Shown: positions 15,040 through 61,600 of the stretch, one piece after another
Numbering within the stretch: position 1 is the first letter of the stretch
How the letters are laid out: the number at the start of each line of letters is the position of its first letter
Origin: Candidatus Rifleibacteriota bacterium
GTDB taxonomy: Bacteria > Muiribacteriota > Ozemobacteria > Ozemobacterales > Ozemobacteraceae
DNA length: 64,000 nucleotides
Direction of reading: 5' to 3'
Assembly (NCBI GenBank): GCA_012520995.1
Contig: JAAYNI010000080.1
Coordinates: forward strand, 25,823 to 89,822
The notes under the pieces: generated by a model
What the model was told of the DNA's origin: nothing
The model's database searches: none
What the model saw: only the letters and a program-made list of their open reading frames with translations
Translations under genes and position numbers: made by a program

Positions 15040-15208
15040 CTATCCACAGATGGACACAGATTCATACAGATGAGGGCACAGAAAGATATACAACGGTTAT
15101 TTATCGACTTCTTGAAGCAGTTGACAGTCCCATGTTGAATTCTAAACAATTCAACTCGCCACGCACCACTCGCCACTCATCACTGATTTTTAACCTGCGG
15201 TTAAAAAT
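15040..15208. repeat. Intergenic repeat-arm locus A
   Basis: Left 9-mer arm ctatccacagatggacacagattcatacagat (15040-15071); right 7-mer arm ctaaacaattcaactcgccacgcaccactcgccactcatcactg (15142-15185); then palindrome atttttaacc-tgc-ggttaaaaat (15186-15208). Confidence 0.85.
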
Positions 15209-17618
15209 CCCGCGTTTTACGCGGCTTTAGTCCTTTGTCTTTAAAATATTGTTCAGCCTTTTTGTGCCACTCGTCTCTCGCCGCCTCATCCACAGCTATT
15301 TGCAAATAGCCCACAGCGTGAACAGCTGTCACAAAATCAGACAAGAAAGAGAAAGTGTCATTGGCGACAGCTTCCTGAGCTAGCAATGAGGTATTCTGAG
15401 CGTCTATCAAGTCCAAGATTCCTATAGCGCCGTTTGAATAAGCATTTTTCACTATTTCCAAAGTTTTTTCCGCAAAAGCTGCACGACTTTCAGAAAGAGC
15501 TATTGAGAGATAGGAAGCCTTCACATCCTCTAAAGCAGCCCTGGTTGCCAACTCCAGCTTATTCATTACGCTTTGTCTTGTCGACTCGACAGCTTTCTGA
15601 GCAGCTTTAGCAGCTCTGATTTTGGCACCTCTTTCTCCGCCCTCATAGATCGGGAAAGACACTTCCAAGCCTACAGACCAGTCATTTCTGTCCGAATAGC
15701 TGATAAAATTATTAATTGGCGACGGCAAAGCGGGATTATCTTTTCCTGCGCCAGCTTTATAAGCCGTTCTTGCATATTCGCCTTTGAGAGCGACAGTAGG
15801 CGAAGTCTTAGCGGCAACTTCTGTTTTCGTATACCTTGAAGTGCTTTCAACCATTTTATCCAACTGAGCAAGCAATGGAGAATGTTCAAAAGTTTCCTTA
15901 ACCAGAAAATCTTTTAAAAACTTGTACCCTCCAGGGTTATCAATATAAGCTGACAGCCTGTCTTTCTCTAAAAACAGAAAACTGGAAAAAATATCGGGAT
16001 CTTTGGGACAAAAGATTGTTTCCTGATCTCGGCACAATACCGCATTCAAAGCCATATTTGCTTTTTTACAGACAGCAGAAGACTGGAGAAGAGCCTGCTT
16101 AGCGCTGGCCATTTCAATTTCCCAGCGATAAACATCAGAAGCCGAACTCATGCCTATATTTTCTCTAAAACGAGCTATTTCAAGGTTCGCCCTGATCACT
16201 TCCAGATTGTCTTTCTTTATATTTAAAAGAGTATTGGCCTTGAGCAAGTTCAAATAACTGTTGGCAGCTTCTTTTGCTACATCATAAAGCAAAGCGCGCT
16301 CTTCTTCTTGTTTAGCGGCATGCAGAATTTTCTTGATATCTCCGGCAGCCATAGCCTCACGATTGTAGAGCAAAGCTTTTATTTCAGCACCGAATTTAAC
16401 CGTGCGCTCTGCAGGAGCAACCAAGGTTTCGGCTCTGTCATCATCAATAACAAGCCCTCTGGCAAAAGCTGATAGTCTGGGAGACAAAAGACTTGCCGCT
16501 TCATCTGCTTCAGCTGCGGCTTTTTTCGTCTCAAGCCGTTTGGCTTTCAAAGCGTAGCTTTTGCTCACAGCCTCAGAAACAACTTCATAAATAGACATTT
16601 TTGCGCCTGTTCCGGCTGCCAGCTCTTCATTAATGAGATCGGCTTCTATCATCTGTTTCCAGCTGGGATAAAGTCCTATCTTTTCCGCCGTTTTCATATC
16701 TATAGTGAATTTGTCACTTTGATCAAAGTTCACCGGGAAAGACGCGGGGTTTTCCCCCAAATAAATTCTTTGTATGAACGTAACAACTCTTCGGCTGAGT
16801 TTCCTGATATCTATTTTGGGAAAAACGCTGCAATAAACTCCCTCACTGGAAGTTCCAGAGTCAATCATAGCCATAGAAGGGATCTTTAGAGCATTTATCA
16901 TCTTAATTATCTGCTGCATTTTTGAATGTGACAAATCAGAGAGAGGTGCCAAATAAACCGCATCCGAAGAGGCTATTTCTTTTTCTATCGCCGACAAATC
17001 GTTGGCAGCGGGAACTATTTTAAGCTTGAATCCCTGTTCAGAAGCCTGCTTTTGCAAAGCGTCATGGAGTTCGGGAAGACCATCTATCAAATAGGGACTC
17101 ATCAAAAGACTGACAGTCTTGATATCTGTTATTTCTCCCAGCCTTCTCATGTGCTCGCCCAACTCCAGAGCAAAATCGATATAGGCCAAATTAGAAATGC
17201 CGCTTCTGCCTTTTTCAGAAGGCACAGACAACAAATCTGCATTGTAGATATGAGTAGCGATAACAGGCTTTCTATGGAATTTCATACCTACAGCGTTTTT
17301 TGAAGAAACAGCTCCAATAGCCAGAATAAGATCAATAGCAGAATCTTTTTCAAATTTGTCCAGCAAACGTTTTGAGTTCTGACGATTCCAATCAGCAGAA
17401 ACAATATTCTCGGGCTTCAGGTAAAGCCCTTGTCCGTCTGGAAGAAGCTTGGCGCTTTCCTGCTCGATCAACCTGCGCAGAGCCACAAAGCTTTCGTGAG
17501 GGCCGTCATATACTATCGCAGTGTTCAAGGGCCTAGCCAAAAGAGGCGAATGTGAGAGAAAAAGTAAAAAGAAAAAGACAAGCACTCCGTATAGAGTGCT
17601 TCTGCAAGGATAAGTCAT
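15201..17618 (-). CDS. TolC-family outer membrane protein with extra N-terminal periplasmic-binding-like domain
   Basis: Signal peptide; about 320-aa alpha/beta N-terminal region; C-terminal about 460 aa with two OEP-type repeats (SFPIYEGGERGAKIRAAKA, YSNGAIGILDLIDAQ). Confidence 0.8.
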   Translation of the reverse strand: MTYPCRSTLYGVLVFFFLLFLSHSPLLARPLNTAIVYDGPHESFVALRRLIEQESAKLLPDGQGLYLKPENIVSADWNRQNSKRLLDKFEKDSAIDLILAIGAVSSKNAVGMKFHRKPVIATHIYNADLLSVPSEKGRSGISNLAYIDFALELGEHMRRLGEITDIKTVSLLMSPYLIDGLPELHDALQKQASEQGFKLKIVPAANDLSAIEKEIASSDAVYLAPLSDLSHSKMQQIIKMINALKIPSMAMIDSGTSSEGVYCSVFPKIDIRKLSRRVVTFIQRIYLGENPASFPVNFDQSDKFTIDMKTAEKIGLYPSWKQMIEADLINEELAAGTGAKMSIYEVVSEAVSKSYALKAKRLETKKAAAEADEAASLLSPRLSAFARGLVIDDDRAETLVAPAERTVKFGAEIKALLYNREAMAAGDIKKILHAAKQEEERALLYDVAKEAANSYLNLLKANTLLNIKKDNLEVIRANLEIARFRENIGMSSASDVYRWEIEMASAKQALLQSSAVCKKANMALNAVLCRDQETIFCPKDPDIFSSFLFLEKDRLSAYIDNPGGYKFLKDFLVKETFEHSPLLAQLDKMVESTSRYTKTEVAAKTSPTVALKGEYARTAYKAGAGKDNPALPSPINNFISYSDRNDWSVGLEVSFPIYEGGERGAKIRAAKAAQKAVESTRQSVMNKLELATRAALEDVKASYLSIALSESRAAFAEKTLEIVKNAYSNGAIGILDLIDAQNTSLLAQEAVANDTFSFLSDFVTAVHAVGYLQIAVDEAARDEWHKKAEQYFKDKGLKPRKTRDF

Positions 17619-17637
17619 TTTTCAGCTCCCGTTTAAA

Positions 17638-18333
17638 TTAAATACCAGGGCCAGTAGATGATACAGCCTTCAGCTCCGGATAACTGCGCAGAACCTTTAC
17701 AATTTCAACAAAGGTAGAGGTTCCCGGGAAGAGTATATTCAACTCGAAATTGGAATATTTCTTGTCTTGGTCGATTGTAACGGAAATTTCAACTATCTCA
17801 ACGTCATGTTTCGCCAAAAGCTGTCTTATTTCATCAACTGTCACTTCGCGAGCAACTGTCACAAAAATGGTTCTGGCAACCGGAAACTGTCTGCGATAAA
17901 TAGCGCTGTGAGATATTATGTTGAGAAGAACTATCATCAAAGTTGCAACAGAACCCATCATATATTGCCCCGCACCTATGGCCATGCCAACACCGCAAGT
18001 TGTCCATACTCCTGCAGCAGTGGTTAAACCGCGCACTGTTGCTGTTCTTATAAAAATAGTGCCTGCTCCGAGAAAGGCCACGCCACTGATAGTTCCATAA
18101 GCTATACGCGAAGGATCCAGCCTCACGCCTTCAACACACAAAAGGTCAAAAAATCCATATTTGGATATAATCATCAACAGTGCCGAAGCTAGAGCCACTA
18201 TAGCATGGGTACGCAACCCAGCCGACTTAAGCTGATTTTCTCTCTCCAAACCTATGCACATACCGCAAGCCATAGCTATGAGGAGTTTTATAATAGCTTC
18301 AGTTTCGTTAAATGCAGGGGTCACAGGATTCAT
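17638..18333 (-). CDS. MgtC/SapB family protein with C-terminal ACT-like domain
   Basis: IGLERE, AGLRTH, DPSRIAYG, GLTTAAGVW motifs. Confidence 0.92.
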   Translation of the reverse strand: MNPVTPAFNETEAIIKLLIAMACGMCIGLERENQLKSAGLRTHAIVALASALLMIISKYGFFDLLCVEGVRLDPSRIAYGTISGVAFLGAGTIFIRTATVRGLTTAAGVWTTCGVGMAIGAGQYMMGSVATLMIVLLNIISHSAIYRRQFPVARTIFVTVAREVTVDEIRQLLAKHDVEIVEISVTIDQDKKYSNFELNILFPGTSTFVEIVKVLRSYPELKAVSSTGPGI

Positions 18334-18437
18334 AAAAAGAGCACCTTAGAGGGAATGGTTTAATACAGCTTCGCTCATTGTAATGCAAACTTTGAAATCA
18401 ATCAAGCACACAGAAGAGAAAAACCACAACAGCCGAT

Positions 18438-18528
18438 CTATCCGCAGATTACACAGACGGGATTTTAAGCATAGCTTTAAATCAGGGCACAGGGAGTTAG
18501 TAAGCCACCCCTACGCCCTACTCCCTAA
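18438..18528. repeat. Intergenic repeat-arm locus B
   Basis: ctatccgcagattacacagac (18438-18458), then cagggcacagggagttag and an inverted 7-mer arm ccacccctacgccctactccctaa (18505-18528). Confidence 0.7.
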
Positions 18529-18534
18529 ATCAAG

Positions 18535-20694: not shown

Positions 20695-20735
20695 TGTTTT
20701 ATCTCCATTTAAAAGGCATAGGAAACAGAAAGGCA

Positions 20736-21073
20736 AAAACCTTTTTTAAACCACGGAACACACAGAATACACGGAAAGGCAGAAAAACTTTTCATTTATT
20801 TTATTTATTTCTCTATAGTTTTTATATTCGCATTAATTTAACTGCTTATCAATAACAGATAAATTTCAAATTTTGTAATATTTTCTCTGATTGATATGCC
20901 GTCAGGGTTTTAATCAGCAACGGGGACAAAATTCTATAAGATAGAATTTTGTAATTGATTTCTTCATCTTCAGAATCTGCGGATGAAATATTTTGTCTTT
21001 TTCCGTGTATTCTGTGTATTCTGTGGTCAAAAGCTTCTTAGTTCGTGTTTTTCGTGTGTTTCGTGGTTTAAAG
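20736..21073. repeat. Intergenic repeat-arm locus C (inverted 9-mer arms about 300 bp apart)
   Basis: Left aaaaccttttttaaaccacggaacacacagaatacacggaaa (20736-20777); right tttccgtgtattctgtgtattctgtggt (21000-21027) and ttcgtgtttttcgtgtgtttcgtggtttaaag (21042-21073); central perfect hairpin acaaaattctat-aag-atagaattttgt (20926-20952). Confidence 0.9.
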
Positions 21074-22945: not shown

Positions 22946-23159
22946 TAACTAAGACCTCCAGAGTCTTAAGTTTATTTTATATTTCACTCAACAATAAGGA
23001 GTCGAAACTATTTAAAAGCTGCTGAAAAGAGAGCTTGCCAGAAGCTGTTATTATCTTTAGGAGCTTATTTTTTTAAATATGCTCCTAAAATATGCCACGA
23101 CAATATAACACATTTTGCTTTTCCAGTCTCAATAACATCTGTATACCTAAAGAAGTAAA

Positions 23160-23266
23160 GGGGGAGACAGGGATTAGGGGGAGTTAGAGCAGCGAGAACA
23201 AATCTCCAAGACAAATAGCAAAACCTTTTTTAAAACCACAGATTACACTACCCACTCTAGTGCGGC
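23160..23266. repeat. Intergenic repeat-arm locus D
   Basis: aaaaccttttttaaaaccacagattacac fused to cactacccactctagtgcggc (23246-23266), which recurs with one mismatch at 27584-27604. Confidence 0.7.
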
Positions 23267-23340
23267 GGCAAATCTGTCACGCAACATTTAGTTTATTAAA
23301 TTGGAGAATATGATAAGAAACTTTTAGATGTTTCACAGCG

Positions 23341-24729
23341 CTAGGCTTTCGTGCCGTAGCCGAATAGAAGAATCCAGACAGTCTGAAATATAATTTTAAT
23401 ATCCAGCATCAGACTGTAATTATCTATGTAATACAAATCATAAAGAACCTTATCAGTCATCTCTGTGTAAAATCTGGAGTTGACTACTGCAAGTCCCGTC
23501 ACTCCCGGCTTAACAGAAAGCCTTCTCCCCTGAAATTCCGGCATTTGATCCGCAAAAAATGCACGCTCCGGCCTAGGTCCTACAACCGACATTTCTCCAG
23601 CCAGCACTAGAAAGAACTGTGGCAGCTCATCAAAACCGTAATTGCGAAGTTTTTTGAAAAATGGCGTTATTCTAGGATCATCCTCACCTGAGACTTGAGG
23701 ACCGCTTTCGTTTTCGCTTCCAAGTTTCATAGTTCTGAATTTAATCAGATCGTATTCTTTGCCAAACCTGCCAATTCTTTTTTGCTTATAAAAAATCGAA
23801 CCATTTAAACGAAGCTTCACAGCCAAAGCAGTAAATATCATAGCCGGAGCTGATATTACAATAGCAGCGGCAGAAAATACTATATCAAAAAGCCGTTTAC
23901 CGAAAGCTCTGATTCCAGTAATAGGCCTTGAAGAAAGAGTCACCATCGGATAGCCGTCCAATGTTTTCATAGCAGTAAGACCGCCAGATACTGCTTTATT
24001 TACTGCAAAACGAACCCTAAAATGATGAGGCTCCTCTTTTCTGGCATAAAATATTTGAGACCAAAATGAATCAAGATTGAGTTCATGGTCAGCCACTATA
24101 ATTTCATCTACATGATGAAAAACTACAAAAGAAGCCAAATTCTCTATATCAGACGCATCATAATGTTTGAGGATTATAACGCGAACAGGCATATGGCGAT
24201 GAAACCAACGAACCATTTGCCCTGCTGTCTGAACATCACCTATAGTGACAGCCTTAAGAAGTTTTTTATGGGGCAAAAAGAAAGTGAAAAGAAATATTCT
24301 CACAAAGAAAAGAGTAAAAAGACCTATAAAAAGTGCTATAAGAAAAACCGCACGCGGGAAATTGTGAGACATTTCCGCAATATGCCTGGAAAGAAAAGCT
24401 ATGAGGTTAAAAGAAAGAAATGAAGCCCCCAAAGCCGTTAAAAGCTGAAAAAACAAATCGGATGCGCCCTTTTTAGCTTTTATATTGAATATGCCTGCCA
24501 AAGAACCCCAAAAAATATAAATACCCAACAGCAGGCATCTTACCCTTAGATAGGAAGTTACATAAAGATACTCATCCGGTATTTCAACAAGCCAAAAGTT
24601 GAAAACCTTAAGAAAAATCAGGTTTAACAAAAAGGCATCTACAGCAAGCAGAACCAAAGCAAAAAAAGGTTCAAAGCCTTTTGGCAAACGAACAAGCAGA
24701 CCGTGGAGTTTTCTATTTAGCCCAGCCAA
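23341..24729 (-). CDS. Polyprenyl glycosylphosphotransferase (WcaJ/WbaP-type priming sugar transferase)
   Basis: Four N-terminal TM helices; C-terminal Bac_transf motifs KRLFDI, KFRTM, DELPQ, GEMSVVGPRPE, KPGVTG, YDLYYI. Confidence 0.93.
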   Translation of the reverse strand: MAGLNRKLHGLLVRLPKGFEPFFALVLLAVDAFLLNLIFLKVFNFWLVEIPDEYLYVTSYLRVRCLLLGIYIFWGSLAGIFNIKAKKGASDLFFQLLTALGASFLSFNLIAFLSRHIAEMSHNFPRAVFLIALFIGLFTLFFVRIFLFTFFLPHKKLLKAVTIGDVQTAGQMVRWFHRHMPVRVIILKHYDASDIENLASFVVFHHVDEIIVADHELNLDSFWSQIFYARKEEPHHFRVRFAVNKAVSGGLTAMKTLDGYPMVTLSSRPITGIRAFGKRLFDIVFSAAAIVISAPAMIFTALAVKLRLNGSIFYKQKRIGRFGKEYDLIKFRTMKLGSENESGPQVSGEDDPRITPFFKKLRNYGFDELPQFFLVLAGEMSVVGPRPERAFFADQMPEFQGRRLSVKPGVTGLAVVNSRFYTEMTDKVLYDLYYIDNYSLMLDIKIIFQTVWILLFGYGTKA

Positions 24730-26665: not shown

Positions 26666-26666
26666 A

Positions 26667-27464: not shown

Positions 27465-27553
27465 GATCTGTTTCCGTCCGTTCTAACTGATTTCGCTACA
27501 TTATGCACGATTTTTCACTTCATGACAAGCACAGGAGTTAAGCTCGAAAAAAC

Positions 27554-27604
27554 AAACAATTTCACTACCCGCCACCCACCAACCACTACCCTCTCTAGTG
27601 CGGC
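27554..27604. repeat. Intergenic repeat-arm locus E
   Basis: aaacaatttcactacccgccacccaccaaccactaccctctctagtgcggc: right-type 7-mer arm with the aaacaatt subterminal motif. Confidence 0.7.
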
Positions 27605-27678
27605 TCTAGCATTTGAACAAACTAATTATTGAAAAGCAGCATAAGATTTTATAGGTAACTTTTAATGAAAATGCCGCA

Positions 27679-28947
27679 CTAGCGTAGTGCGCTTTGAGCC
27701 AAGATTATGTAGGAACTGCCAGGAAAATAGCGTTCTAAGGCTCCTAAAACTCTATAAGCCTCGTTGATATTTCCAAGCTCACGCAATATTCTTACAGCGT
27801 AGTAAAGAGAGCCTTCTTTTACCGCCTTGTCATTCGAATTCTCAAAGGCTGCCTTAAAGCCGTGATAAGCTTCTATCGTCATCCCTACCGCATATTGTGA
27901 ATAAGCGTTTAAAAAGACGTATCTATCATAAGGAACAATAGAAGGATCAGGAGTAAGATTTGCCAAAAGATCCAAAGCTATATGCGGATTTCTCTCCTGA
28001 ATATAACATTCAGCAAGCAGGTAAGCAGCTTTCTGGCGTTCTCTTACAGGCAAATTCGGCGAATTCAATGCTTCCGTAAAAGCTATCCTGGCAGAGATAT
28101 ATTCTCCGTCGCCAAAGTATTTTGCTCCGCGGTGAACATTTTCAGTCGCTGAAATAACTCGGGAATTATCCTGCAAAGTCTTTCTGATAAAAGAACTGGA
28201 ATATTTATTCAGGGTATCTTCCACAAGACCGCTATAACAGATTGAAAGTTCTCTTTGGACGTTACCGCTTGCCATAATCCGTTTGATAAAACGATGCAAG
28301 AGCTTATCGCCATAAGTTTCTACCAAATATTTGATCTTAAGATAATTTTCCACGTATTTTTCCAAAGAAATAGGATTGCCTTTGGGATTTTCGTCTTCAG
28401 AACCGAAACGTTCCAAACTGAATCCCTTTTGATTCAAAGCCTTTATTCTGGCCAAGCCCTGATCAGCCGCATGAACCGCCGTACCCTCTTTGATCCACAT
28501 GGGGAGAGCCTCATATTCTCTTAAGCCCATTATGTCAGCCATGACAGCATGGGTCATTTCGTGAGTCATTTCTTCAAGAAGTGTAGCCTCACCCTTCATG
28601 AGAAATTCCAAGTCCAAAAAGACATAGTGAACCAAGACGCCTTCTTGAGTTTTTATAGATTGCCTCTTGCCGCGTAATCTGACACCGCCGTGCATTAGTT
28701 TGTCATCAAAGATAACCACAAGATTCATGCCTCTTCTCGGGGGAATTCCCAGAGTTTGTTGAATTTTGGCTAAGGCTTCTTCATAGACATAGGGCAAATC
28801 AGCCATAATCTTTTCGAATTTTGCTGTACCCAAGTAGCGTCCTTGATAAGAGCTATCTACGTAAAAAGATGCAGAGCAATCAAAGGAAATTGCAAAAAAA
28901 AGCGTTACTAAAAATAGAAGCGGCAAGTTTTTCTTATTTTTTTCCAT
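27679..28947 (-). CDS. Secreted zinc metallopeptidase (MA-clan-like) with C-terminal TPR region
   Basis: Signal peptide; HEMTH (HExxH) plus downstream WIKEGTA Glu ligand; TPR-like helices (AAYLLAECY, LYYAVRI). Confidence 0.7.
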   Translation of the reverse strand: MEKNKKNLPLLFLVTLFFAISFDCSASFYVDSSYQGRYLGTAKFEKIMADLPYVYEEALAKIQQTLGIPPRRGMNLVVIFDDKLMHGGVRLRGKRQSIKTQEGVLVHYVFLDLEFLMKGEATLLEEMTHEMTHAVMADIMGLREYEALPMWIKEGTAVHAADQGLARIKALNQKGFSLERFGSEDENPKGNPISLEKYVENYLKIKYLVETYGDKLLHRFIKRIMASGNVQRELSICYSGLVEDTLNKYSSSFIRKTLQDNSRVISATENVHRGAKYFGDGEYISARIAFTEALNSPNLPVRERQKAAYLLAECYIQERNPHIALDLLANLTPDPSIVPYDRYVFLNAYSQYAVGMTIEAYHGFKAAFENSNDKAVKEGSLYYAVRILRELGNINEAYRVLGALERYFPGSSYIILAQSALR

Positions 28948-29064
28948 ATCTTTTATAGCTCCTGTTTTGAAACTAAAAAAATATGAAGAAAAATCAAGAA
29001 ATTATTTATAAACAGATGAAGACAGGTTTGTTGTTGTCAAAAAATAATTAAGAAAGTCATATAA

Positions 29065-29634
29065 AAAGTTGTTTCGGAAGAAAGGCGTATAAGAGTTGAC
29101 AACTACCCCACAGGACGCCTTTTGGAGGAGTTTTTCAGCACAGCTTACAAAGCACATCCATATGGTCAGCCAACTCTTGGGCATATGTCTGACATAGAAA
29201 ACTATAACAGACAAGATGCCGAAGCCTTTTACCGTAAATATTATACGCCTGCCAATATGACTATAGCTATAGTCGGAGATGCAGAGCCTGAAAAAACGAT
29301 TGAGCTTGTGAAAAAATATTGGATTCGCATACCGGCTGGGAAGGCAGCACGCAGAATTACAACTGTAGAGCCTCCTCAAAAGGCTGAACGCACGGTAAAT
29401 CTATATGACAAAACTCAGCCTTTCTGCCTTGTTGGATGGCATATTCCTGAAGTTGAAAAGATTATACTTCCTAACGGCTTACGCCTTTATATACTTGAAG
29501 ACAGTACTCTGCCGCTTTTCAGAGCTTCAGTAAGAGTTCATGGAGGTTCCTATCTTGAATCTCCCGAACAAACAGGCCTTTCAAAACGGTTCTCCGCTAA
29601 TAAAACAATTTTAACGCAACCTTTATCTCTATAA
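29065..29634 (+). pseudogene. Chimeric remnant of two M16 (pitrilysin-family) peptidase genes
   Basis: After an in-frame TAA (29062-29064): KVVSEERRIRVDN...AHPYGQPTLG...FYRKYYTPANMTIAIVGD...EPPQKAER...GWHIP (mid M16 chain), joined to EVEKIILPNGLRLYILED..LPL....VHGGSYLE..EQTGLS (start of a second M16 chain), then unrelated sequence. Confidence 0.8.
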
Positions 29635-29652
29635 AAACGAAGTAAAAGGAAA

Positions 29653-29716
29653 GCGGATGAAAAATCTTTTGTCCTTTTCCGTGTATTCTGTGTGTTCCGT
29701 GGTTTAAAAAGGTTTT
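29653..29716. repeat. Intergenic repeat-arm locus F
   Basis: 29676-29710 is an exact 35-bp inverted copy of 20743-20777. Confidence 0.9.
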
Positions 29717-29720
29717 GGGG

Positions 29721-31826: not shown

Positions 31827-31900
31827 ATTACTATCATTCTGTGGTTACTAAATACTGCATTCATTTTTTTTATTCTAAGATTACGCGAACTTTTGAAAGA

Positions 31901-32427
31901 AGTGATGAGTGGCGGGTGACGAGTGGCGAGTGAAATTGTTTAGACAAACTTATTTATGTTTTTCAAACTTGCGATTAGCCTGTTCAATAATCGACTCACT
32001 TCCTCTGAAAGCCCCAATAGCTCCTGAACTGTAGCGGGATTAAGATACCCCAAACGCTTGGCTATAAAAATTTGGGTCTCTAGCTCTGCTTTGGGCCTCT
32101 AGCAATTGACAAAAAATTAAGAAATTCTGCTGTTGATTGTCTTGCCTGACCTTCTGCTATATTGGATGGAATAGAAATTGCTGAACGCCTGAGTTGACTG
32201 GTCAACACATAACGTTCTTCATCTGGATTTTTTTACTTGCCTTATATACTAGTTGCACTAAATCCATTGCCTTTTGCCAAACGATCAAATCTTGATAACT
32301 CTTAATTGCCACTATTTGGCTCCTCTCAACAAGGGATTTAATATTGATTTGATTTTTCCGTCAAGTCTTTGATTAATACAAGTTAAAACATTCCAACTCG
32401 CCACTCGCCACTCATCACTCGCCACTG
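31901..32427. mobile_element. Putative small cassette: inverted 7-mer repeat arms enclosing a four-helix-bundle gene (locus G)
   Basis: Left arm agtgatgagtggcgggtgacgagtggcgagtgaaattgtttag (31901-31943) and inverted right arm aaaacattccaactcgccactcgccactcatcactcgccactg (32385-32427). Mobility is inferred. Confidence 0.55.
31940..32312 (-). pseudogene. Four-helix-bundle protein (TIGR02436 / 23S rRNA-IVS protein / Avd-like) with two -1 frameshifts
   Basis: Not in the ORF track. AGGAG RBS and GTG at 32312. Manual reconstruction: [89 protein letters not shown]...LSEEVSRLLNRLIASL. Shifts near 32228 (T7 run) and near 32094; 373 bp plus 2 gives 125 codons. Confidence 0.9.
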
Positions 32428-32453
32428 ATGCAATGGCTACCGCCATTGCATCA
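32426..32453. terminator. Perfect 12-bp hairpin containing the dnaB stop codon
   Basis: tgatgcaatggc-tacc-gccattgcatca. No U-tract follows, so terminator function is uncertain. Confidence 0.45.
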
Positions 32454-33797: not shown

Positions 33798-33825
33798 AAT
33801 TTAAACTCCCGCTAAATACATTGAA

Positions 33826-34020
33826 CAGTGAACAGTGGACTGAATGAACCAGTGATGAGTGGCGAGTGGTGCGTGAGAACCAACCAACAGCTATAACAGC
33901 CCGTTCTATCCACAGATTACACAGATGACACAGATAAAAAAGCAACAACCTTTACACACACAGAACACACGGACAGACTCCAACAGGCTAAAAATTACGC
34001 CAAAACTTCGTTTTTTGCCA
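33826..34020. repeat. Intergenic repeat-arm locus H
   Basis: cagtgatgagtggcgagtggtgcgtg (33850-33875) is an exact 26-bp inverted copy of 15160-15185. Also ctatccacagattacacagatgacacagat (33906-33935), cacacagaacacacgga, and ctaaaaattacgccaaaacttcgttttttgcca (33988-34020), whose inverted near-copy is at 37145-37183. Confidence 0.9.
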
Positions 34021-34081
34021 GTCTCCGATTAAAGCGAGGTCTTTATTAAATAAATTTGCTGAAGACCTGCATTTCAAGGAA

Positions 34082-34118
34082 AAGCCCTCTATTGCCTAAA
34101 AAAGACTTAAGAGGGCTT
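34082..34118. terminator. Possible hairpin downstream of rplI
   Basis: aagccctct-N19-agagggctt, followed on the minus strand by a short T run. Confidence 0.35.
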
Positions 34119-34145
34119 GATTAGTACTGTCAGAAAAGAATGATG

Positions 34146-36425: not shown

Positions 36426-36426
36426 G

Positions 36427-36825: not shown

Positions 36826-37393
36826 AGGGCGTAGTGGCTAGGGAGTAGAGAGTAGAAAATACGACAACTATCCACAGATTACACAGATGAAAGACCAAAA
36901 ACTTCTAAAAACCACGTAACAAAAAGAACGAAAAAATTTTCAAAACCCTTTTATAAACCACAGAACACACCTTAAAAACAGCGATTGTAGATAGAAAGGG
37001 CAACGAACAAGCAGTGGTGAGTGGCGAGCAAAAAACATCAAGACGTAGGGCTTCAATGAATTAGAAATTAGAAATTAGAAATGAATGTTTAAAACTCAAT
37101 TGCTAGACTAATAAATGCTTTGCAATTACTTTTCTAGTTTTTAATGGCAAAATCGAAAACGAAGTTTTGGCTTATTTTTTAGCATTGTCAATGCTGACTC
37201 CCGGATATTGCTTCTAACCCGCCACTCGCCACGCGGCACTGCTTTTTAAGCTAGCTTAAAAAGACTATCTGTGTAATCTGTGGATAATATGTCTTTGGAG
37301 TTTTTCCGTGTATTCCGTGTGTTCTGTGGTTCAATAAAGGTTTCTGAGGTTTTTCGTATTTTTCGTGTGTTTCGTGTGTTTCGTGGTTGAAAA
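36826..37393. repeat. Intergenic repeat-arm locus I (largest; five left arms, central TTAGAAA array, four right arms)
   Basis: For example tatccacagattacacagat (36869-36888) and its exact 20-bp inverse (37267-37286); ttagaaattagaaattagaaat (37061-37082); 22-bp palindrome at 37242-37263. Confidence 0.92.
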
Positions 37394-42353: not shown

Positions 42354-42372
42354 TAATCTTAGGAGAATATCA

Positions 42373-42690: not shown

Positions 42691-42692
42691 TC

Positions 42693-46534: not shown

Positions 46535-47088
46535 AGGAAAAAAACACCAAGACAGTAACTGTATTTTGTGCCTCTTCAGACAATCTTTCTGAGCAAATAA
46601 AGCTCTTATCAGCAAGATTCGCTGAGCTTTTGGCTAAAAAAAATTGCCACATGATATACGGCGGTACTTCTACAGGCCTTATGGGAACAATAGCAAACGC
46701 TTATAAAGAAGCGGGAGGCCATCTTATAGGAATTGTGCCTGAATATTTCATCAAAAGAGGCGAAAAATACAGCCTCTTGGATGAAACTCACTACGTTTCC
46801 TCTGTAAGCGAACGCAAACAGATGATGGTAAAACTCTCTGACGCTCTGATTATGCTGCCAGGCGGAATAGGAACCTATGACGAGTTCTTTGACGCGCTAG
46901 CGCGAAAACAGCTCGGACAATGCGTGGCCTCCATTTACATTTTTAATGCCTGCGGCTTTTATGACAAGTTTCTGGAAATGCTTGCTTATGGAGTAGAAAA
47001 TGGAGCCATAACGAGTGAAACAATGCAGCTTTTCAAGGTATTCGACTCTCCCGAGAAACTGGCGGAAGACATTAACTTAAAACAGTGA
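46531..47088 (+). CDS. LOG-family (TIGR00730) nucleoside monophosphate phosphoribohydrolase
   Basis: VFCASS, YGG...GLMG, ERKQMM, PGGIGTYDE. Confidence 0.92.
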   Translation: MKEKNTKTVTVFCASSDNLSEQIKLLSARFAELLAKKNCHMIYGGTSTGLMGTIANAYKEAGGHLIGIVPEYFIKRGEKYSLLDETHYVSSVSERKQMMVKLSDALIMLPGGIGTYDEFFDALARKQLGQCVASIYIFNACGFYDKFLEMLAYGVENGAITSETMQLFKVFDSPEKLAEDINLKQ

Positions 47089-47463
47089 TTAGTGGTCAGT
47101 GGACAGAAACAGCTAGCGATAAGTGGCGAGTTAAATAGTTAAATTGTTTAGGACTCAATATTACAGCCAACAACTGCTTTGAGATGCTAATAAACAACAG
47201 AAACTCTTGGAATTTTTATCCACAGATTACACAGATAGCCACAGATGAGGACAAAATGGTCAAAAATTGCATTCTGCTACCGCATAATCACGATTTTTGC
47301 CCTAGCCTCTGATTAAGAACAGACACATAACAACAATGGCTTGTGGGTAGCGGATAATTGGCAAAGAGGACAATTAACAGCCAGTGATGAGTGGTGGCAG
47401 GCGGCGAGTTATATTCAAGCCCGCCACCCACCACGAATAGTAATTTTTAAGCAGCTTAAAAAT
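47083..47463. repeat. Intergenic repeat-arm locus J
   Basis: cagtgattagtggtcagtgg (overlaps the LOG stop), agtggcgag...aaattgtttag, ttatccacagattacacagatagccacagat (47216-47246), cagtgatgagtggtggcaggcggcgag, cccgccacccaccacg, palindrome at 47443-47463. Confidence 0.85.
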
Positions 47464-47469
47464 CAGTAT

Positions 47470-48198: not shown

Positions 48199-48334
48199 GT
48201 ACCATCTCCTTCTCAAATTTCGCAGTATCTGTACCATAAATTCAAGAAAAAGTCCACTCTTAATTTATCAGTGTCCATCGGATTACGGATATATACAATA
48301 AATTAAAAATTTTAAGGTTCTTAAAAACAAAGCA

Positions 48335-49255: not shown

Positions 49256-49259
49256 CAGT

Positions 49260-50210: not shown

Positions 50211-50218
50211 CTAAGACC

Positions 50219-53479: not shown

Positions 53480-53524
53480 GGCATTTTTTGCCGATGTGCT
53501 CAGTGCGCACTGGGAGGTTTATTT

Positions 53525-54088: not shown

Positions 54089-54109
54089 TTTTTTCTCAGC
54101 CCTCTTCAA

Positions 54110-55654: not shown

Positions 55655-55729
55655 TGCTTTGTTTTGCCTAAAACTTTCCTGTCAGCCTTTCAAAATTCAC
55701 AAGACAATATCCGCTCATAAGATCGCACC

Positions 55730-55785
55730 GTGATGAGTGATGATGAGTGATGAGTGATGAGTGGTGCGTGGCGGGCGGCGAGTTG
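55730..55785. repeat. Intergenic repeat-arm locus K (expanded GTGATGA array)
   Basis: gtgatgagtgatgatgagtgatgagtgatgagtggtgcgtggcgggcggcgagttg between convergent genes. Confidence 0.85.
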
Positions 55786-55804
55786 AGCACTGACCGCCAG
55801 CTTT

Positions 55805-57055: not shown

Positions 57056-57154
57056 CCCGTTCCCCTTCAAAAAAGGTTTTCAAATCAGTAAAATTATAGA
57101 GCTGTCTAAACCGCATTTAGAAATAAATTGTAACATTCAAATGACAAAGATCCA

Positions 57155-58555
57155 ATGAAAAACTATTATCAGATGCTCGGAGTCCATGATTTTGCCAACT
57201 TTGACGACTTAATAACCGCTTTCGAAAGAAAGCGCGATGAACTTTTTAAAAGCGATTCGCCATTAGCAAGCATACCCAAACTTCTGGAGATGAAAGCCGC
57301 TCTGGAAGAATTGGCAGACAGCGAAAAGCGTAAAGTCTATGATGAAAAACTAGAAGAATTCCTAAAAGAAACTGACGAAATTTTTTCTCAAGCCATAGCC
57401 GCTATTTCGGAAAAAGATTACGAAAAAGCTCTAGAACTCTTGAATCAGTGCATTAAGTTGAACCCGGGCGAACCCTCCTATTATGATGCGCAAGGTCTCA
57501 TATTCAGACTTCAGGAAAAATACAGAGAATCAATCGCCGCATACAGACAAGGCCTTGCCACAGGTATGCAAAAAGCTTTTTTTAACAAAAGTCTCGCTGA
57601 AATCTACACTTTAATGCAAGATCAAGACAATGCTGAAAGTTGCTATCTTGAAGCCATAGAAGGCTTCAAAACTATCTTGGAAACTGAACCGGGCGAACCG
57701 GAAGCCACAGAAGCCCTCTTAGACGTATATATGGCAACCGGCTTCAAAGAAGAAGCATTAGAACAAGCACAAATTCTTTTAAAAAGCGACCCTGACAACT
57801 GCTCTTATCTTATGAAACATGCCATAGCCTCTTATCGCATTGACGACTATGAAAAAGCTGAGCAAATCTTCGAAAAACTCTTACAGGCAGGATATGACAG
57901 ACCTGCTGCCTATCTTTATATTGGATTGATAAACTTTAACAAACGGCTATTGGCAAAAGCGGCTGAAGCCTTTGAAAAAAGTTTGGAACTCGCTCCGCAG
58001 CAAAAAGGCGTAGCAGAGCTCTCAGCTAAAATAGAAGAAATCCGAAAACGAATAGGAAAAACAGTCGAGGAAATTACCGACAAAGGAATCTATGATTTCT
58101 ATACAGACGGCTACGTGAAATGGTATAACGATGAAAGAGGCTTAGGAATGGCCGCATGCAAAGAATGTCCTGATGTGCTTTTGCACTACACGGCCATACC
58201 TGCAGAATTATCTGACAAGCTGAAAAGAGGAGACTTAATCAAATTCGGAGTATTCAAGGACGAAGAAACTCCTGTAGCCGTAAAAGTGGAACTTATTTCC
58301 AGCGAAGAAGACTTGGAAACCTTGCCCGGAAAAATTTTCTCTTTGGACAGAGAAAGAGCCACTGGCCTTATAAAAGGCCCCGAAGACGAAGATATACTCT
58401 TCAGTTTTTCAGAATTGAACCAAAATGCGGCTGAGGTCTTAACCGAAGGCTTGGATGTCATCTTTGAAGCAGCCAAAACCAAGACTTTAGATGACAAATT
58501 TGCTTGGACAGCAAGAAATATCAGGCTTAGAAAGCCTGTAAAAATTCCAAGCTAA
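57155..58555 (+). CDS. J-domain-like / TPR / tandem cold-shock-domain protein
   Basis: NYYQMLGV...LADSEKRKVYD (J-like, no HPD); about six TPRs; GYVKWYNDERGLG...DVLLHYTAI and a second degenerate CSD. Confidence 0.75.
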   Translation: MKNYYQMLGVHDFANFDDLITAFERKRDELFKSDSPLASIPKLLEMKAALEELADSEKRKVYDEKLEEFLKETDEIFSQAIAAISEKDYEKALELLNQCIKLNPGEPSYYDAQGLIFRLQEKYRESIAAYRQGLATGMQKAFFNKSLAEIYTLMQDQDNAESCYLEAIEGFKTILETEPGEPEATEALLDVYMATGFKEEALEQAQILLKSDPDNCSYLMKHAIASYRIDDYEKAEQIFEKLLQAGYDRPAAYLYIGLINFNKRLLAKAAEAFEKSLELAPQQKGVAELSAKIEEIRKRIGKTVEEITDKGIYDFYTDGYVKWYNDERGLGMAACKECPDVLLHYTAIPAELSDKLKRGDLIKFGVFKDEETPVAVKVELISSEEDLETLPGKIFSLDRERATGLIKGPEDEDILFSFSELNQNAAEVLTEGLDVIFEAAKTKTLDDKFAWTARNIRLRKPVKIPS

Positions 58556-58570
58556 AATTGAAAATTTGTC

Positions 58571-58599
58571 TTGTCAGAGCGGGAGGCATGTGATACAAT
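58571..58599 (+). promoter_or_regulatory. Sigma70-type promoter of tRNA-Leu
   Basis: TTGTCA-N17-TACAAT with extended -10 TGn, 11 bp before the tRNA. Confidence 0.75.
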
Positions 58600-58610
58600 G
58601 AACGAACATT

Positions 58611-58695
58611 GCCAGAATGGCGGAATTGGCAGACGCACGGGACTCAAAATCCCGCGCCCCATAAAGGCGTGTCGGTTCAACCCCGACTTCTGGCA
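58611..58695 (+). tRNA. tRNA-Leu (CAA)
   Basis: Acceptor GCCAGAA/TTCTGGC, anticodon arm CGGGA-CTCAAAA-TCCCG, long variable arm, T arm GTCGG-TTCAACC-CCGAC, discriminator A; CCA not encoded. Confidence 0.95.
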
Positions 58696-58702
58696 TTTTT
58701 TT

Positions 58703-59665
58703 ATGCCTAATTTCCACGGATTCTTAAAGCTTTTAAAAAAGAATTCGGCAATCCCGCTCTTAGCCTTATCTTTCCTGTTCTTCACAATTCCTCTTTTATC
58801 TAAACCTATTGAAGTAGCTGTTTTCAGCGATCTAAACTTTGCTCCCCAGCTTTTCGATATGATAAAATCTGAGCTGGAAACCACACTGAAAGCAAGATGC
58901 ACCCTGAGAATATATCCAATTTCAGAAATGACGAAAGAAAAAGATTTTTCGCATCTTTCCTGCTTGATGTATGAAGAACATAAGGCAAAAGCTCCCTCAA
59001 ACCTGACAGAAAACTTTATAAAAAGTAATTTTTATATAGACCTTTTGTGGCTTCTGACAGGCTCCGAAAAAAAACTCCGATATATATACTTTAACCATAT
59101 GTCTCTAGACTACGAAGGCTTTTTGAATATTCTAAGAGAACTTAGAAAAAGAGACAGCGACCATTTTCCTTGGCTTGAATCACTCGGTTCAACAAACACT
59201 CTGTTCAATTTTCATATAATATTTAACGACAATCTTTCACTGGAAGAGCAAGCAGAAGCAGAAATTCCTCTCAAACAGATATTTGAAAAAGCCGCCGAAG
59301 AAAACTTGCTTAACCCGATATCAACAAAAGCGGATCTTTTTCTTGCCGCTGAAGCCTTTAATAACGAAGATGCCGTGTTTGTTTCTCAATGGCTCCCAGC
59401 GAAAATGATATTTGATAAAAAAACAGCTGAAATCTTTCTGCCGCCTTCCATAATTATCCCCTTCCCTAGTCCAAAAGGCTTAAGAACAGTTCCTTTTGTA
59501 AGATTAAGTTTGTGGATAAATAAAGACTCTGACAGCTTTCATAATCTCCCCATTGGCTTTTCCCCGCCAGACACATTTAAACTCAGAAAATTACACCAGG
59601 ATCCGGATGAACTAAAAAAATGGATCTTGAAGTCCATCAGAAAATATGGAGAAACACGTCCATGA
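58703..59665 (+). CDS. Hypothetical exported protein, possibly a degenerate solute-binding-like partner of the kinase
   Basis: Signal/TM segment; stop overlaps the kinase ATG (ATGA). Start moved to 58703 because the track's start runs through the tRNA. Confidence 0.55.
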   Translation: MPNFHGFLKLLKKNSAIPLLALSFLFFTIPLLSKPIEVAVFSDLNFAPQLFDMIKSELETTLKARCTLRIYPISEMTKEKDFSHLSCLMYEEHKAKAPSNLTENFIKSNFYIDLLWLLTGSEKKLRYIYFNHMSLDYEGFLNILRELRKRDSDHFPWLESLGSTNTLFNFHIIFNDNLSLEEQAEAEIPLKQIFEKAAEENLLNPISTKADLFLAAEAFNNEDAVFVSQWLPAKMIFDKKTAEIFLPPSIIIPFPSPKGLRTVPFVRLSLWINKDSDSFHNLPIGFSPPDTFKLRKLHQDPDELKKWILKSIRKYGETRP

Positions 59666-61386
59666 AGCGTTTTTTTTCTCCCCTAGCCTTAAAAGTAATA
59701 CTCCTTTTCATACTTTTAATGACTGTCTTAGCTATGGCTATTAATGCCACTTCCACAGAGTTGATTAAAGAAAAAACTGGAGAAACCTTTCAAAAAAGCC
59801 TTCAAAACCTCTCAAAAGCTCTCTATTCCACTTGGAAATCAGAAAAACATCAAACTCTGAAAAATGCCATGCTCCTCGCGGAATCAGAAAAAATAATAAA
59901 TTATTCCGCATACAGCATGGACAATCTATTGAAAAACGAACTTCTCAGGTCGCACAGGAAAACAGATTTCAGCGAAATAGAAGTTAAAATGAAAAACGGT
60001 CTGAACGTTTCTACAAAGCATTATAAAACAAGAAACCTGCTTCCGATTGATACCAAAAACAGCGATTACAACCTTGCAAGAGTCGAGCCCGTAATAGAAA
60101 AAGGAGAGCTCACAATAACAGCTGCCACTCCCTTATACAAGCAAGGCGAATTCATAGGCAGACTTTGTCTGAAAAAAAGACTGGATCAAGCTATGGTCAA
60201 ACGATTTTCAGAAAATCTGCAAACAGAGCTGATTTTCATATCTGGTACTGAAATATTGGCTTCAACCCTATCATCTGAAGAAACAAGAATTGCTGAAAAG
60301 CATCTGAAAAGAAAAGATTTTCCCAGAAAAGAATTTTTCGACTTGGAGACTGGGAGCAACATCTACACATTTACGCAAACTGTTTTGGACACAACCGATA
60401 AAGGAGAGCTTCTCTTTTGTCTTTTGGGTATTTCAAAAGCTTCAACGCTAAGCATGATCAAGGAAGCAAGAACCAGAAATCTTTCAGTATCCCTGGCTTT
60501 ACTTACTCTTAGCCTCTTAGCAGCTTTCGTATTTACACATTTTGTATTTCTTTCCAGAATCAGAAAATTGGCTCAAGGTGCTCACAATCTGGCTGAAAAT
60601 AAAGAAAACTGCCATATACCAGACTTAGGACAAGACGAACTGGGAGATTTGGGCAGAGCCTTTAACAATATGTTTGAGAAAATCGCAGAAAGCAAAGAAA
60701 TGGAGAAACAGCTTTTCAGAGCCGAAAAGCTCAGCTCTGTCGGACAATTGGCAGCAAGCGTAGCTCACGAAATAAAAAATCCTTTGGCCTCAATTAAAAC
60801 CTTGGCGCAACTGATTCAAGAGGAAACCCCTAAGGATGACACCAGACGAGAATACGCTGACATAGTGGTCAACGAGGTGAACAGACTAAACTCTGTAGTG
60901 GAACAGCTCTTGAATTTCGCCAGACACGAAGAATCAAAAATAGAAGAGACACCTTTCAAGCCAATAGCAGAACATGTCTTGGCGCTTATAAAGCATGAAG
61001 GCGAAAGAAACAAAGTTACTTTAGAAGCTTCTTATGAACCTGATTTAATAATTTTTGCAGATTCAGAGAAGCTCAAACAAGTTATTTTAAACCTCTTCTT
61101 TAACGGCATGCAGTCGGTGAAAAAAGACGGATATGTTAAGCTGGAAGCTTCTAAAACTGATTCCGGATGCCTAATAGAAATTTCCGATTCCGGCAAAGGC
61201 ATTCCTCAAGAATTAGCAGAAAAAATCTTTGAACCCTTTTACACTACAAAACAAAGAGGAACAGGCCTAGGACTTGCTATTGTAAAGAAAATCATAGATC
61301 TGCACGAAGGCAAAATAAGCATTTCAAAAAGCACTTCCGGAGGAGCTAAAGTCTCCATTTTTCTGCCAAACGCGAAAAAACAGTAA
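59662..61386 (+). CDS. Sensor histidine kinase (periplasmic domain, HAMP, HisKA, HATPase)
   Basis: Two TMs, DELGDLGRAFN, VAHEIKNPL, QVILNL, DSGKGI, PFYTTK..GTGLGL. Confidence 0.95.
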   Translation: MKRFFSPLALKVILLFILLMTVLAMAINATSTELIKEKTGETFQKSLQNLSKALYSTWKSEKHQTLKNAMLLAESEKIINYSAYSMDNLLKNELLRSHRKTDFSEIEVKMKNGLNVSTKHYKTRNLLPIDTKNSDYNLARVEPVIEKGELTITAATPLYKQGEFIGRLCLKKRLDQAMVKRFSENLQTELIFISGTEILASTLSSEETRIAEKHLKRKDFPRKEFFDLETGSNIYTFTQTVLDTTDKGELLFCLLGISKASTLSMIKEARTRNLSVSLALLTLSLLAAFVFTHFVFLSRIRKLAQGAHNLAENKENCHIPDLGQDELGDLGRAFNNMFEKIAESKEMEKQLFRAEKLSSVGQLAASVAHEIKNPLASIKTLAQLIQEETPKDDTRREYADIVVNEVNRLNSVVEQLLNFARHEESKIEETPFKPIAEHVLALIKHEGERNKVTLEASYEPDLIIFADSEKLKQVILNLFFNGMQSVKKDGYVKLEASKTDSGCLIEISDSGKGIPQELAEKIFEPFYTTKQRGTGLGLAIVKKIIDLHEGKISISKSTSGGAKVSIFLPNAKKQ

Positions 61387-61533
61387 GCAGCAGACGGAGG
61401 GCAGCGAACTGCATAACAGGTGGTCATTAGATACAGCAAGCTTCAATAAATTAGAAACCTGATCTCCAAAAAGAAAGGCTGCGACAATTTGATCTGGTTG
61501 CTAAAAGCTGTTGTCAGTTGTAATATGAAGTTG

Positions 61534-61600
61534 CTAAACATTTCCGCTTGCCACTCATCACTCACCACTGTTTTTAATAATCTGTGAAATCTGTGGATAA
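61534..61600. repeat. Intergenic repeat-arm locus L
   Basis: ctaaacatttccgcttgccactcatcactcaccactg (61534-61570) and atctgtgaaatctgtggataa (61580-61600), both right-type. Confidence 0.8.

Follow-up and report, generated by a model that had tools for sequence, protein, structure and literature searches.

What fills the long intergenic gaps of a compact bacterial genome, and why should the filling be built from short words that recur in inverted order at spacer after spacer? The window that raises this question is a stretch of 64,000 nucleotides (nt) from Candidatus Rifleibacteriota bacterium, an uncultured digester bacterium (GenBank assembly GCA_012520995.1, contig JAAYNI010000080.1, positions 25,823 to 89,822). 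Nearly every long gap in it appears to be filled with nested, mostly gene-less cassette remnants bounded by arms, that is, by runs of tandem 7-nt or 9-nt words with inverted partners. We believe that small palindromic DNA cassettes, and derivatives of them that carry no gene, have the arms as their terminal inverted repeats, and we put the probability of this at about 0.65. The best reading of the stacks is that they are non-autonomous derivatives of cassettes like the intervening sequences (IVS) of 23S ribosomal RNA (rRNA), in a system that resembles REPINs (hairpin-forming doublets of repetitive extragenic palindromic sequences, REPs) or miniature inverted-repeat transposable elements (MITEs).

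Arms and modules in the window

The cassettes fall into two super-families, the heptamer-armed (A, E) cassettes and the nonamer-armed (B, C, D) hairpins. Class A is made of the tandem heptamers CAGTGAT GAGTGGC GAGTGGT and class E of TAGGGAG TAGGGCG; the nonamers are CCACAGATT ACACAGAT in class B, CCACGGAAC ACACAGAAT ACACGGAAA in class C and CCACGAAAC ACACGAAAA in class D. Three further modules are repeated and accompany the arms. Module F is the palindrome TTTTTAAGC-N-GCTTAAAAA, which abuts the pyrimidine-rich A or E arm at five loci (at 18.4k it is on the opposite side), module G is GCTAAAAATTACGCCAAAACTTCG, placed after left arms, and module H is a hairpin, CTAGTGCGGC...GCCGCACTAG, whose stem provides a TAG stop codon. 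The modules were mapped in all 12 arm-bearing spacers by exact string, with the following result.

15040-15085, plus strand: locus 1, B left arm (CTATCCACAGATGGACACAGAT...), degenerate; kept in the variant strain L135, where the neighbouring core is replaced.
15152-15208, minus strand: locus 1, A heptamer right arm (15152-15185) and F palindrome ATTTTTAACC-TGCG-GGTTAAAAAT (15186-15208), abutting the stop of an 805-residue gene.
18438-18529, no strand: locus 2, B left 18438-18458, F 18462-18482, short E left 18483-18496, E right (CCACCCCTACGCCCTACTCCCTAAA) 18505-18529; layout identical in L135 with two unit letters swapped.
20736-21072, no strand: locus 3, gene-less C cassette with C left 20736-20777, AT-rich core, C right 21000-21034 and D right 21042-21072, the last extending into the dxs stop codon.
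23157-23269, no strand: locus 4, E left 23157-23189, B/C-type left with AAAACCTTTTTTAAAACCAC flank 23220-23248, right-type or H stub (TACCCACTCTAGTGCGGCGGC) 23249-23269.
27554-27682, no strand: locus 5, AAACAATTTCAC motif and then a solo right-type A/E arm (27554-27594); H hairpin 27595-27682, its distal stem containing the stop codon (TAG) of a 422-residue gene; H is seen again after another gene in L135.
29655-29716, minus strand: locus 6, solo C right arm, its flanks conserved on the inner and the outer side, with a glycosyltransferase stop 18 nt away; missing in the variant strain, where the spacer is 56 nt.
31901-32427, minus strand: locus 7, full heptamer-armed cassette with A arms 31901-31932 and 32394-32427 and a PF05635/TIGR02436 gene at about 32312-31943 on the minus strand.
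33825-34032, plus strand: locus 8, rplI-dnaB spacer, ACAGTGA run 33825-33849, A left 33850-33877, B left 33906-33936, degenerate C left 33954-33976, G core 33987-34032; G is joined directly to B or C arms in other contigs.
36827-37389, no strand: locus 9, stacked array upstream of the rpsF promoter, with E/B/D/C/A left arms, core and A/F/B/C/D right side.
Locus 9, left arms: E 36827-36857, B 36868-36889, D 36908-36936, C 36942-36971, A 37012-37028.
Locus 9, core: (AATTAGA)x3 37059-37082, inverted G module 37156-37183.
Locus 9, right side: A 37218-37241, F palindrome 37242-37263, B 37265-37288, C 37303-37343, D 37352-37389.
47083-47463, no strand: locus 10, convergent spacer, A left 47083-47106 and 47115-47151 (the latter with AAATTGTTTAG), B left 47215-47253, G-like module 47291-47316, small A hairpin 47382-47408 with 47420-47435, F palindrome 47443-47463.
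55729-55785, plus strand: locus 11, convergent spacer, solo A left arm of about 8 heptamers (GTGATGA/GTGGTGC...).
61544-61602, minus strand: locus 12, A right 61544-61570, half an F palindrome, B right 61580-61602, ending 3 nt before the next ATG.

An earlier inspection of the letters, here called the sequence-only reading, had placed arms of several classes in 12 intergenic regions. All 12 do hold 7-mer (A, E) or 9-mer (B, C, D) arms, in five classes, although those at 27554 and 23160 are degenerate and the locus at 29653 has a single arm only. The two long inverted matches it listed between distant loci are real. The pair 15160-15185 and 33850-33875 is exact over 26 nt and extends to 29 nt at 97%, and the pair 20743-20777 and 29676-29710 is exact over 35 nt and extends to 56 nt at 88%. 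Counted at up to three mismatches and set against dinucleotide-preserving shuffles, the A word has 15 matches where 0.02 are expected, the B word 8 where 0.10 are expected, and the C and D words 4 and 3 where 0 are expected. All 21 arrays of two or more units lie in non-coding DNA, which is 10.7% of the window. Every spacer of 150 nt or more bears arms, the sole exception being 58697-59619, and with that one set aside the arm-less spacers, divergent ones included, measure at most 126 nt. Because the long spacers bear arms and the arm-less ones are this short, arms and cores behave like insertions in a compact genome, whose long spacers are accounted for by the arms and the DNA between them.

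The arrangement follows rules. It had been claimed that left arms precede right arms wherever both occur, and this is true in 7 of 7 such spacers (16 purine-rich before 11 pyrimidine-rich arms); random ordering within loci would produce it with a probability of about 1.5e-5. The rule is independent of gene direction, since an arrangement of the form X...X' reads alike on both strands. Arm pairs are nested, not side by side, and the array at 36827-37389 runs E B D C A, core, A F B C D. Solo arms mostly sit at the matching end of the spacer and point to its middle, as paired arms do. Overlap with stop codons is confirmed at both genes for which it was proposed: the TGA of the LOG gene (47086-47088) lies within the first CAGTGAT unit, and the TAA of dxs (21068-21070) is supplied by the TTTAAACCAC flank of arm D. 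The statement that arms lie downstream of a gene is trivially true in co-oriented spacers. The divergent spacers, all of 126 nt or less, are without arms.

Predicted RNA folds agree with the pairing of the arms. The C cassette of locus 3 folds at -84.3 kcal/mol (z = -9.0) with its arms paired. At locus 7 the A arms (31901-31932 against 32394-32427) are complementary at 76-92% over 24-41 nt and pair in both the minimum free energy and the centroid structure (z = -3.9). The stacked array of locus 9 is predicted to form one long multi-segment hairpin in which D/D', C/C' and A/A' are nested (z = -4.2).

Cassettes with genes and the spread of the words

The heptamer full form consists of a purine-rich arm, a short leader, a PF05635 four-helix-bundle gene, a pyrimidine-rich arm and the F palindrome. 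In the window it is seen at locus 7, where the A arms enclose a core of 444 nt. On its minus strand lies a PF05635/TIGR02436 four-helix-bundle gene, interrupted by two frameshifts; read through them, the gene matches PF05635 in Pfam at E = 9.8e-39 and TIGR02436 at E = 1.9e-36. The broken form is real, since Illumina RNA contigs show it without change. At both frameshift sites the sister strains differ in length by single bases. The allele in contigs L124 and L131 has a nonsense codon that leaves 103 residues, and the allele on an RNA contig (P0025) is intact at 124 residues. With three allelic states in strains about 1% apart, the cargo gene must be decaying in different ways. The locus 7 A arm has one heptamer fewer in the sister strains. 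At 15.1k, 27.5k and 47.1k an arm is still followed by AAATTGTTTAG, which is the stop-codon region of the four-helix-bundle gene in reverse, and going by this shared motif these three loci look like deletion derivatives.

A second four-helix-bundle gene from the same samples (P0047, 73% identical) is preceded by an E left arm and leader and followed by an E right arm and F, with a B arm outside. Since this gene sits between E arms, the E arms are those of a further cassette of this kind. The purine-rich strand of the E arms also fits the usual G-quadruplex pattern, because GGG recurs every 7 nt (18505-18529 and L135:9130-9165, with up to five runs in L135). The window spacers hold no other protein relic when their stop-to-stop pieces of at least 28 residues are compared with NCBIfam and when the four-helix-bundle protein and two GxxExxY proteins are run against them with tblastn; only a fragment of an M16 peptidase gene was found.

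The nonamer full form, known for the C word from other contigs, carries a GxxExxY (PD-(D/E)XK-type) gene. The exact C 24-mer occurs in at least 120 metagenome stretches, against a chance expectation of about 0. Among the matches listed, 53 of 134 C arms have an inverted partner, mostly as hairpins with a loop of 20-120 nt, and gene-less copies outnumber gene-bearing ones by about 50:1 (more than 95% empty hairpins). A TIGR04256 GxxExxY gene adjoins the exact word in three contigs, L236, L237 and L282 (E = 1.6e-42 and 4.2e-40). The clearest is L236, where an upstream stop codon is followed by three C units, 10 nt, a 124-residue gene, 7 nt and inverse C units. In L282 the gene lies between two C hairpins, with a 25-nt duplicated flank that is part of a duplicated hairpin. 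The idea that the arms have cargo is therefore sustained in three ways, by the PF05635 gene enclosed by A arms, by P0047 flanked by E arms and by the TIGR04256 genes flanked by the C word.

Species-representative genomes of more than 15 phyla have the exact B 17-mer in at least 120 stretches, with about 70 occurrences expected by chance in the whole collection. Cultured carriers of the word include Flavobacterium flevense DSM 1076 and Chryseobacterium sp. Leaf201. Among the matches listed, the inverse partner lies downstream at 76 of 134 sites (within 250 nt at 73 of them) and upstream at 16; 121 of the 134 sites are intergenic, with 29 in convergent and 10 in divergent spacers. The contexts are not those of chance matches, because the inverse word is mostly downstream and the sites are mostly intergenic. 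A third 9-mer unit is common at these sites. The word is also present in ANME-1 (anaerobic methanotroph) archaeal contigs and in 80 further stretches of a viral collection, including a GC-rich phage-like contig with 11 exact copies (L201/L207, IMGVR_UViG_3300037264_001851). In that contig arm pairs enclose whole genes of 109-242 residues, for example a DNA methyltransferase-like fragment, and the AT-rich word is unchanged in the GC-rich background.

Four-helix-bundle proteins about 70% identical to that of the window occur in Nitrospirota, Chlorobiota, Desulfobacterota and others. Three contigs from Nitrospirota, a Chlorobium-like organism and Desulfobulbus (L341:1290-1900, L342:1300-1900 and L344:1500-1960) have close relatives of the four-helix-bundle gene, with heptamer arms, within the coding sequence of a large gene. 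Read by eye, this host gene is like PglX, a DNA methyltransferase of the bacteriophage exclusion (BREX) type, with motifs such as ITLTCNPHYRY and VPDEDNVIP. In L342 one arm is partly in the reading frame of the host gene and translates as EECEVGSEKWEE.

Sister strains and transcripts

Comparison of orthologous spacers, which the sequence-only reading had proposed, shows that near-identical strains differ by block replacement and by unit number. The comparison strain is 1-3% divergent, its contigs were reached through variant proteins, and they cover 9 arm-bearing spacers. At 15k the strain retains the outer A and B arms but has different DNA throughout between them, with an E arm and an F palindrome added (L135); this replaced core has AATTAGAAAT words that resemble the AATTAGA repeat of locus 9. 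At 23.2k the replacement begins at the upstream stop codon and extends to a conserved module on the promoter side, so that block 23154-23347, with E and B arms, corresponds to a 100-nt block with an A-type arm in L132. At 27.5k and 29.7k a whole gene is inverted, with junctions that lie in arm-bearing spacers: the 422-residue Peptidase_MA_2/TPR-like gene (27679-29720) has the opposite orientation in L131/L132 and is 13.6% divergent, whereas its flanks are about 1% divergent. The C arm and the M16 peptidase gene fragment (28948-29634, plus strand) are present in the window strain only. At 20.7k the variant has a different upstream gene, and the join lies within the core of the C cassette (20695-21067 against L135:1-3511); upstream of tex, a 938-residue RCC1/WD40-like gene replaces dxs, and an H hairpin follows its stop codon.

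Other differences are of one unit each, in an A arm, in a D arm and in the central AATTAGA repeat of locus 9 (indels of 7, 7 and 8 nt, the 8-nt one in the 9-mer arm of D type). The (AATTAGA)x3 at 37059-37082 has one unit fewer in the sister strain. The spacers at 18.4k and 33.8k have point changes only. The divergence at 36993 had been considered as a cassette swap, a reading we reject, since it is the insertion of an IS630-like element (its open reading frame, ORF, starts MAYSVNFRKKVLDEV) at 36993/36994 beside the A arm of the stacked array in the strain of GCA_040364315.1 (L133:6876-7000, L124:1-118). A second IS630-like copy lies inside the E left arm of the second four-helix-bundle cassette (L340:1-94).

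The arms are co-transcribed with the upstream gene. An RNA contig from the same kind of digester carries dnaB and the entire A cassette at dnaB depth, with the next gene nearly uncovered. Across the stacked array RNA depth falls from about 9 to about 2 before the rpsF promoter. Another RNA contig joins an inverted G module, a C arm and a D arm (compare 33983-34015, 29675-29710 and 37361-37388). It reaches a depth of about 1494 in run X14 and 330 in X12, where the ribosomal-protein operon has 37, so a G-C-D arm stack at some other locus must be very highly expressed.

Weighing the explanations

Our reading is the simplest one that fits all these observations, and it would work as follows. Cassettes would enter as DNA into gene-terminal spacers, preferably into the core of a resident cassette, and we propose that insertion of this kind would produce nested stacks with all left arms on one side. 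The cargo would then be lost by deletion, leaving paired or solo arms, while tandem units expand and contract through slippage and dispersed arms promote recombination between spacers. At the RNA level paired arms may be a substrate of RNase III, by analogy with the ORF-bearing IVS of 23S rRNA; cleavage would excise the insert from the host transcript, or end that transcript, and so make the insertion tolerable. We infer both the mobility and the RNase III processing.

A number of points weigh against this reading, and it is important to give them together. Neither cargo protein has a demonstrated role in mobility. Neither the window nor some 60 kb of contigs from sister strains contained a GxxExxY gene or relic, so the link of B, C and D arms to GxxExxY rests on other organisms, and for B and D arms that link is not seen at all. 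Neither a GxxExxY nor a four-helix-bundle ORF lies beside the 134 B-word genome sites among the matches listed or the 94 viral-contig sites. The arm words beside the four-helix-bundle proteins about 70% identical to the window's are related, not identical (GAGTGGC, GAAGTGG, TAGTGGC, TAGGGAG), and because these words differ a simple model in which the protein reads its own arm is unsupported. No target-site duplication is found around the A cassette (31890-31900 against 32428-32440) or the C cassette, and among the strains compared there is no insertion event with an empty site and a target duplication; the strains could have come to differ through ordinary homologous recombination among dispersed repeats. 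The metatranscriptome data are assembled contigs that break at repeats, which show co-transcription, not processing sites. The hairpins of B and C words in co-directional spacers are equally stable in sense and antisense (n=26), which gives no sign of RNA-specific selection.

One could argue instead that the arms serve the host as RNA elements at the 3' ends of genes (terminators, 3' stabilisers or RNase III sites, as for REPs or bacterial interspersed mosaic elements, BIMEs), selected and immobile, with the small genes as passengers. In its favour are the position of the arms at 3' ends, their avoidance of divergent spacers and their transcription together with the upstream gene; RNA coverage drops past the cassette and within the stacked array, and the predicted hairpins are very stable. 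G-rich heptamer repeats described earlier have the same positional bias (PMC4692102). However, the hairpins have no U-tract after them and no folding advantage on the sense strand, and solo arms and unmatched pairs (B left with A right at 15k) are unable to form a hairpin. One arm class is exchanged for another at the same spacer in sister strains, and the cargo genes decay. A structural role also leaves unexplained why more than 15 phyla, and GC-rich phage-like contigs as well, should share identical words of 17-24 nt. We consider this explanation unlikely. A less probable idea still is that the tandem words are binding-site arrays of a conserved host DNA- or RNA-binding protein, either DnaA, since the B terminus can read TTATCCACA, or a post-transcriptional regulator as for the TAACTGA repeats. 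Words that are letter-identical across phyla and strict periods of 7 and 9 nt would suit it, and cross-phylum heptamer repeats were earlier read in this way (PMC4679880). A TTAT consensus upstream of the B word would complete a DnaA-box 9-mer, and 3 of the 4 perfect TTATCCACA sites of the window are in B arms. The TTAT flank is present, though, at only 16 of 134 B sites (12%, among the matches listed), the conserved word beginning with CCAC, and for this reason we reject the DnaA-box reading of the terminus. The A, C, D and E arms have no likeness to a DnaA box, B words also occur in ANME-1 archaeal contigs, and five unrelated word classes stacked at one locus, with cargo between the arms, are a misfit for a single regulator.

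A further alternative would be ordinary simple-sequence repeats, made by local polymerase slippage in AT-rich spacers, with the inverted matches as a by-product. The arrays are degenerate and strains differ by exactly one unit, as slippage would have it. Yet exact matches of 26-56 nt, non-repetitive flanks included, connect loci 9-40 kb apart, the same 24-mer is found in at least 120 unrelated metagenome contigs, and inner modules (F, G, AAATTGTTTAG) are shared; polarity and nesting are fixed and there are cargo genes between the arms. In our opinion the long inter-locus matches, the spread of the 24-mer and the shared AAATTGTTTAG motif already refute slippage, and we leave it next to no probability. 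The host-function explanation covers the position of the arms and the protein-binding explanation the conservation of the words, but neither covers the cargo, the solo arms, the swapping of classes and the stacking together.

If the arms do bound cassettes, to which known system do they belong? In architecture the closest is the ORF-bearing IVS of 23S rRNA (helix 45 in Coxiella burnetii; also Leptospira), which has a 28-bp stem, cut by RNase III, and a PF05635 (S23p) ORF (PMC4990558). Both are about 430-530 nt long with an inverted-repeat stem of about 28-35 bp around a PF05635 ORF, and both are transcribed within a host RNA and have an ORF that is apparently dispensable and decaying. The locus 7 cassette, however, lies between dnaB and a GT4 glycosyltransferase gene and not in helix 25 or 45 of a 23S rRNA gene, its arms are tandem heptamers, and 9 other spacers hold these arms with no gene, stacked with other classes. 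In population structure the closest parallels are REPINs with their REP-associated tyrosine transposases (RAYTs) and MITEs with their autonomous elements. The cassettes do not appear to be members of any of these three classes.

The sequence-only reading had favoured a REP/REPIN- or MITE-like system. The pattern supports it, since many gene-less hairpins with rare gene-bearing copies are what REPIN/RAYT or MITE/autonomous-element pairs look like; no transposase-type enzyme was identified, however, and with at least two cargo families there is more than one system. As with REPs, REPINs and BIMEs (PMC3116915, PMC3337134), many short intergenic palindromes lie at gene 3' ends (here 12 spacers in 47 kb), there are inverted doublets and mosaics of several unit types, and rare gene-bearing copies are flanked by the same repeats (here L282). 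In contrast to REPs with their GTAG head, the arms here begin with CCAC (B, C, D) or CAGTG (A). The cargo is PF05635 or GxxExxY rather than a RAYT, and no RAYT gene of the Y1/HUH type is present among the Pfam-annotated genes at 25.7-46 kb, the sister contigs or the ORF pieces of the spacers. REPIN families are lineage-specific and vertically inherited, whereas the words here cross phyla. With MITEs the cassettes share gene-less inverted-repeat elements that far outnumber gene-bearing relatives, and strains that differ at the sites; they differ from MITEs in that we found no target-site duplication and no related insertion sequence (IS element) transposase, and in that the arms are internally repetitive and variable in length. 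Clustered regularly interspaced short palindromic repeats (CRISPR) are unlike them as well, since the 7- and 9-mers are contiguous, without spacers, and no cas gene is among the annotated neighbours. The earlier view that this is no standard IS, REP or CRISPR agrees with the absence of a RAYT or transposase from the sequences searched, of a GTAG head, of a visible target duplication and of spacers between units. Rfam gives no match at any arm at gathering or permissive thresholds, and there is no rRNA in the window. In sum the orientation is non-random, the cargo is linked, the strains are polymorphic and no described family matches.

Published intergenic heptamer repeats are a further comparison (the STRR, or short tandemly repeated repetitive, sequences of cyanobacteria; the GGGNATC G-quadruplex repeats of Xanthomonas and Nostoc, PMC4692102; the TAACTGA repeats of Beggiatoaceae, Cyanobacteria and Bacteroidetes, PMC4679880). 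They too are tandem 7-mers between co-oriented genes near stop or start codons, transcribed and variable in unit number, with the same word in distant phyla and no known transfer mechanism. Like the GGGNATC repeats (PMC4692102), the E arms, with GGG every 7 nt, could form G-quadruplexes. The heptamer repeats are described as direct arrays, and the abstracts mention no partner arm or cargo (PMC4692102, PMC4679880), unlike the polarised, inverted, nested pairs here that enclose PF05635 or GxxExxY. In the literature we found neither the B word nor its CGCAGAT variant, and GxxExxY is mentioned only in passing, in three papers. Intergenic heptamer arrays, IVS elements and REPINs are already published; we found no published description of polarised inverted tandem-word arrays around these genes, nor of the words themselves.

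A broader proposal can be made, tentatively, since we judge it somewhat more probably wrong than right. PF05635 and GxxExxY genes with polarised 7- and 9-mer arms may form one undescribed, bacteria-wide class of exchangeable cassettes that dock at stop codons, nest, and spread between phyla with letter-identical words, possibly through phages. On this view the 23S IVS would be a special case or debris of the class, as would the unexplained 'heptamer repeats' reported from cyanobacteria, Beggiatoaceae and xanthomonads. PF05635 ('23S rRNA IVS protein', Avd-like) and GxxExxY are very large families with, to our knowledge, no known function, and intergenic heptamer repeats have been recorded for decades without a mechanism. 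The window unites both protein families and the heptamer repeats in one organism, with a decaying full cassette in three allelic states, gene-less debris at most long spacers, rules of arm nesting and sister strains whose differences fall exactly at the arms. Genome rearrangement, and the breaks that assembly leaves in metagenome-assembled genomes, also have hot spots at the arms. Since public metagenomes and metatranscriptomes exist for the same digesters, RNase III cutting, the binding or cutting of arms by the small proteins and the movement or swapping of cassettes are testable.

Smaller observations concern the neighbourhood of the arms. The arm-less long spacer at 58697-59619 is 923 nt, lies after tRNA-Leu, and has an ORF called from a TTG start that overlaps the tRNA. 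In the strain of GCA_040364315.1 dnaB is called as two ORFs of 135 and 311 residues (L124:3314-4660), either a frameshift of that strain or an assembly error.

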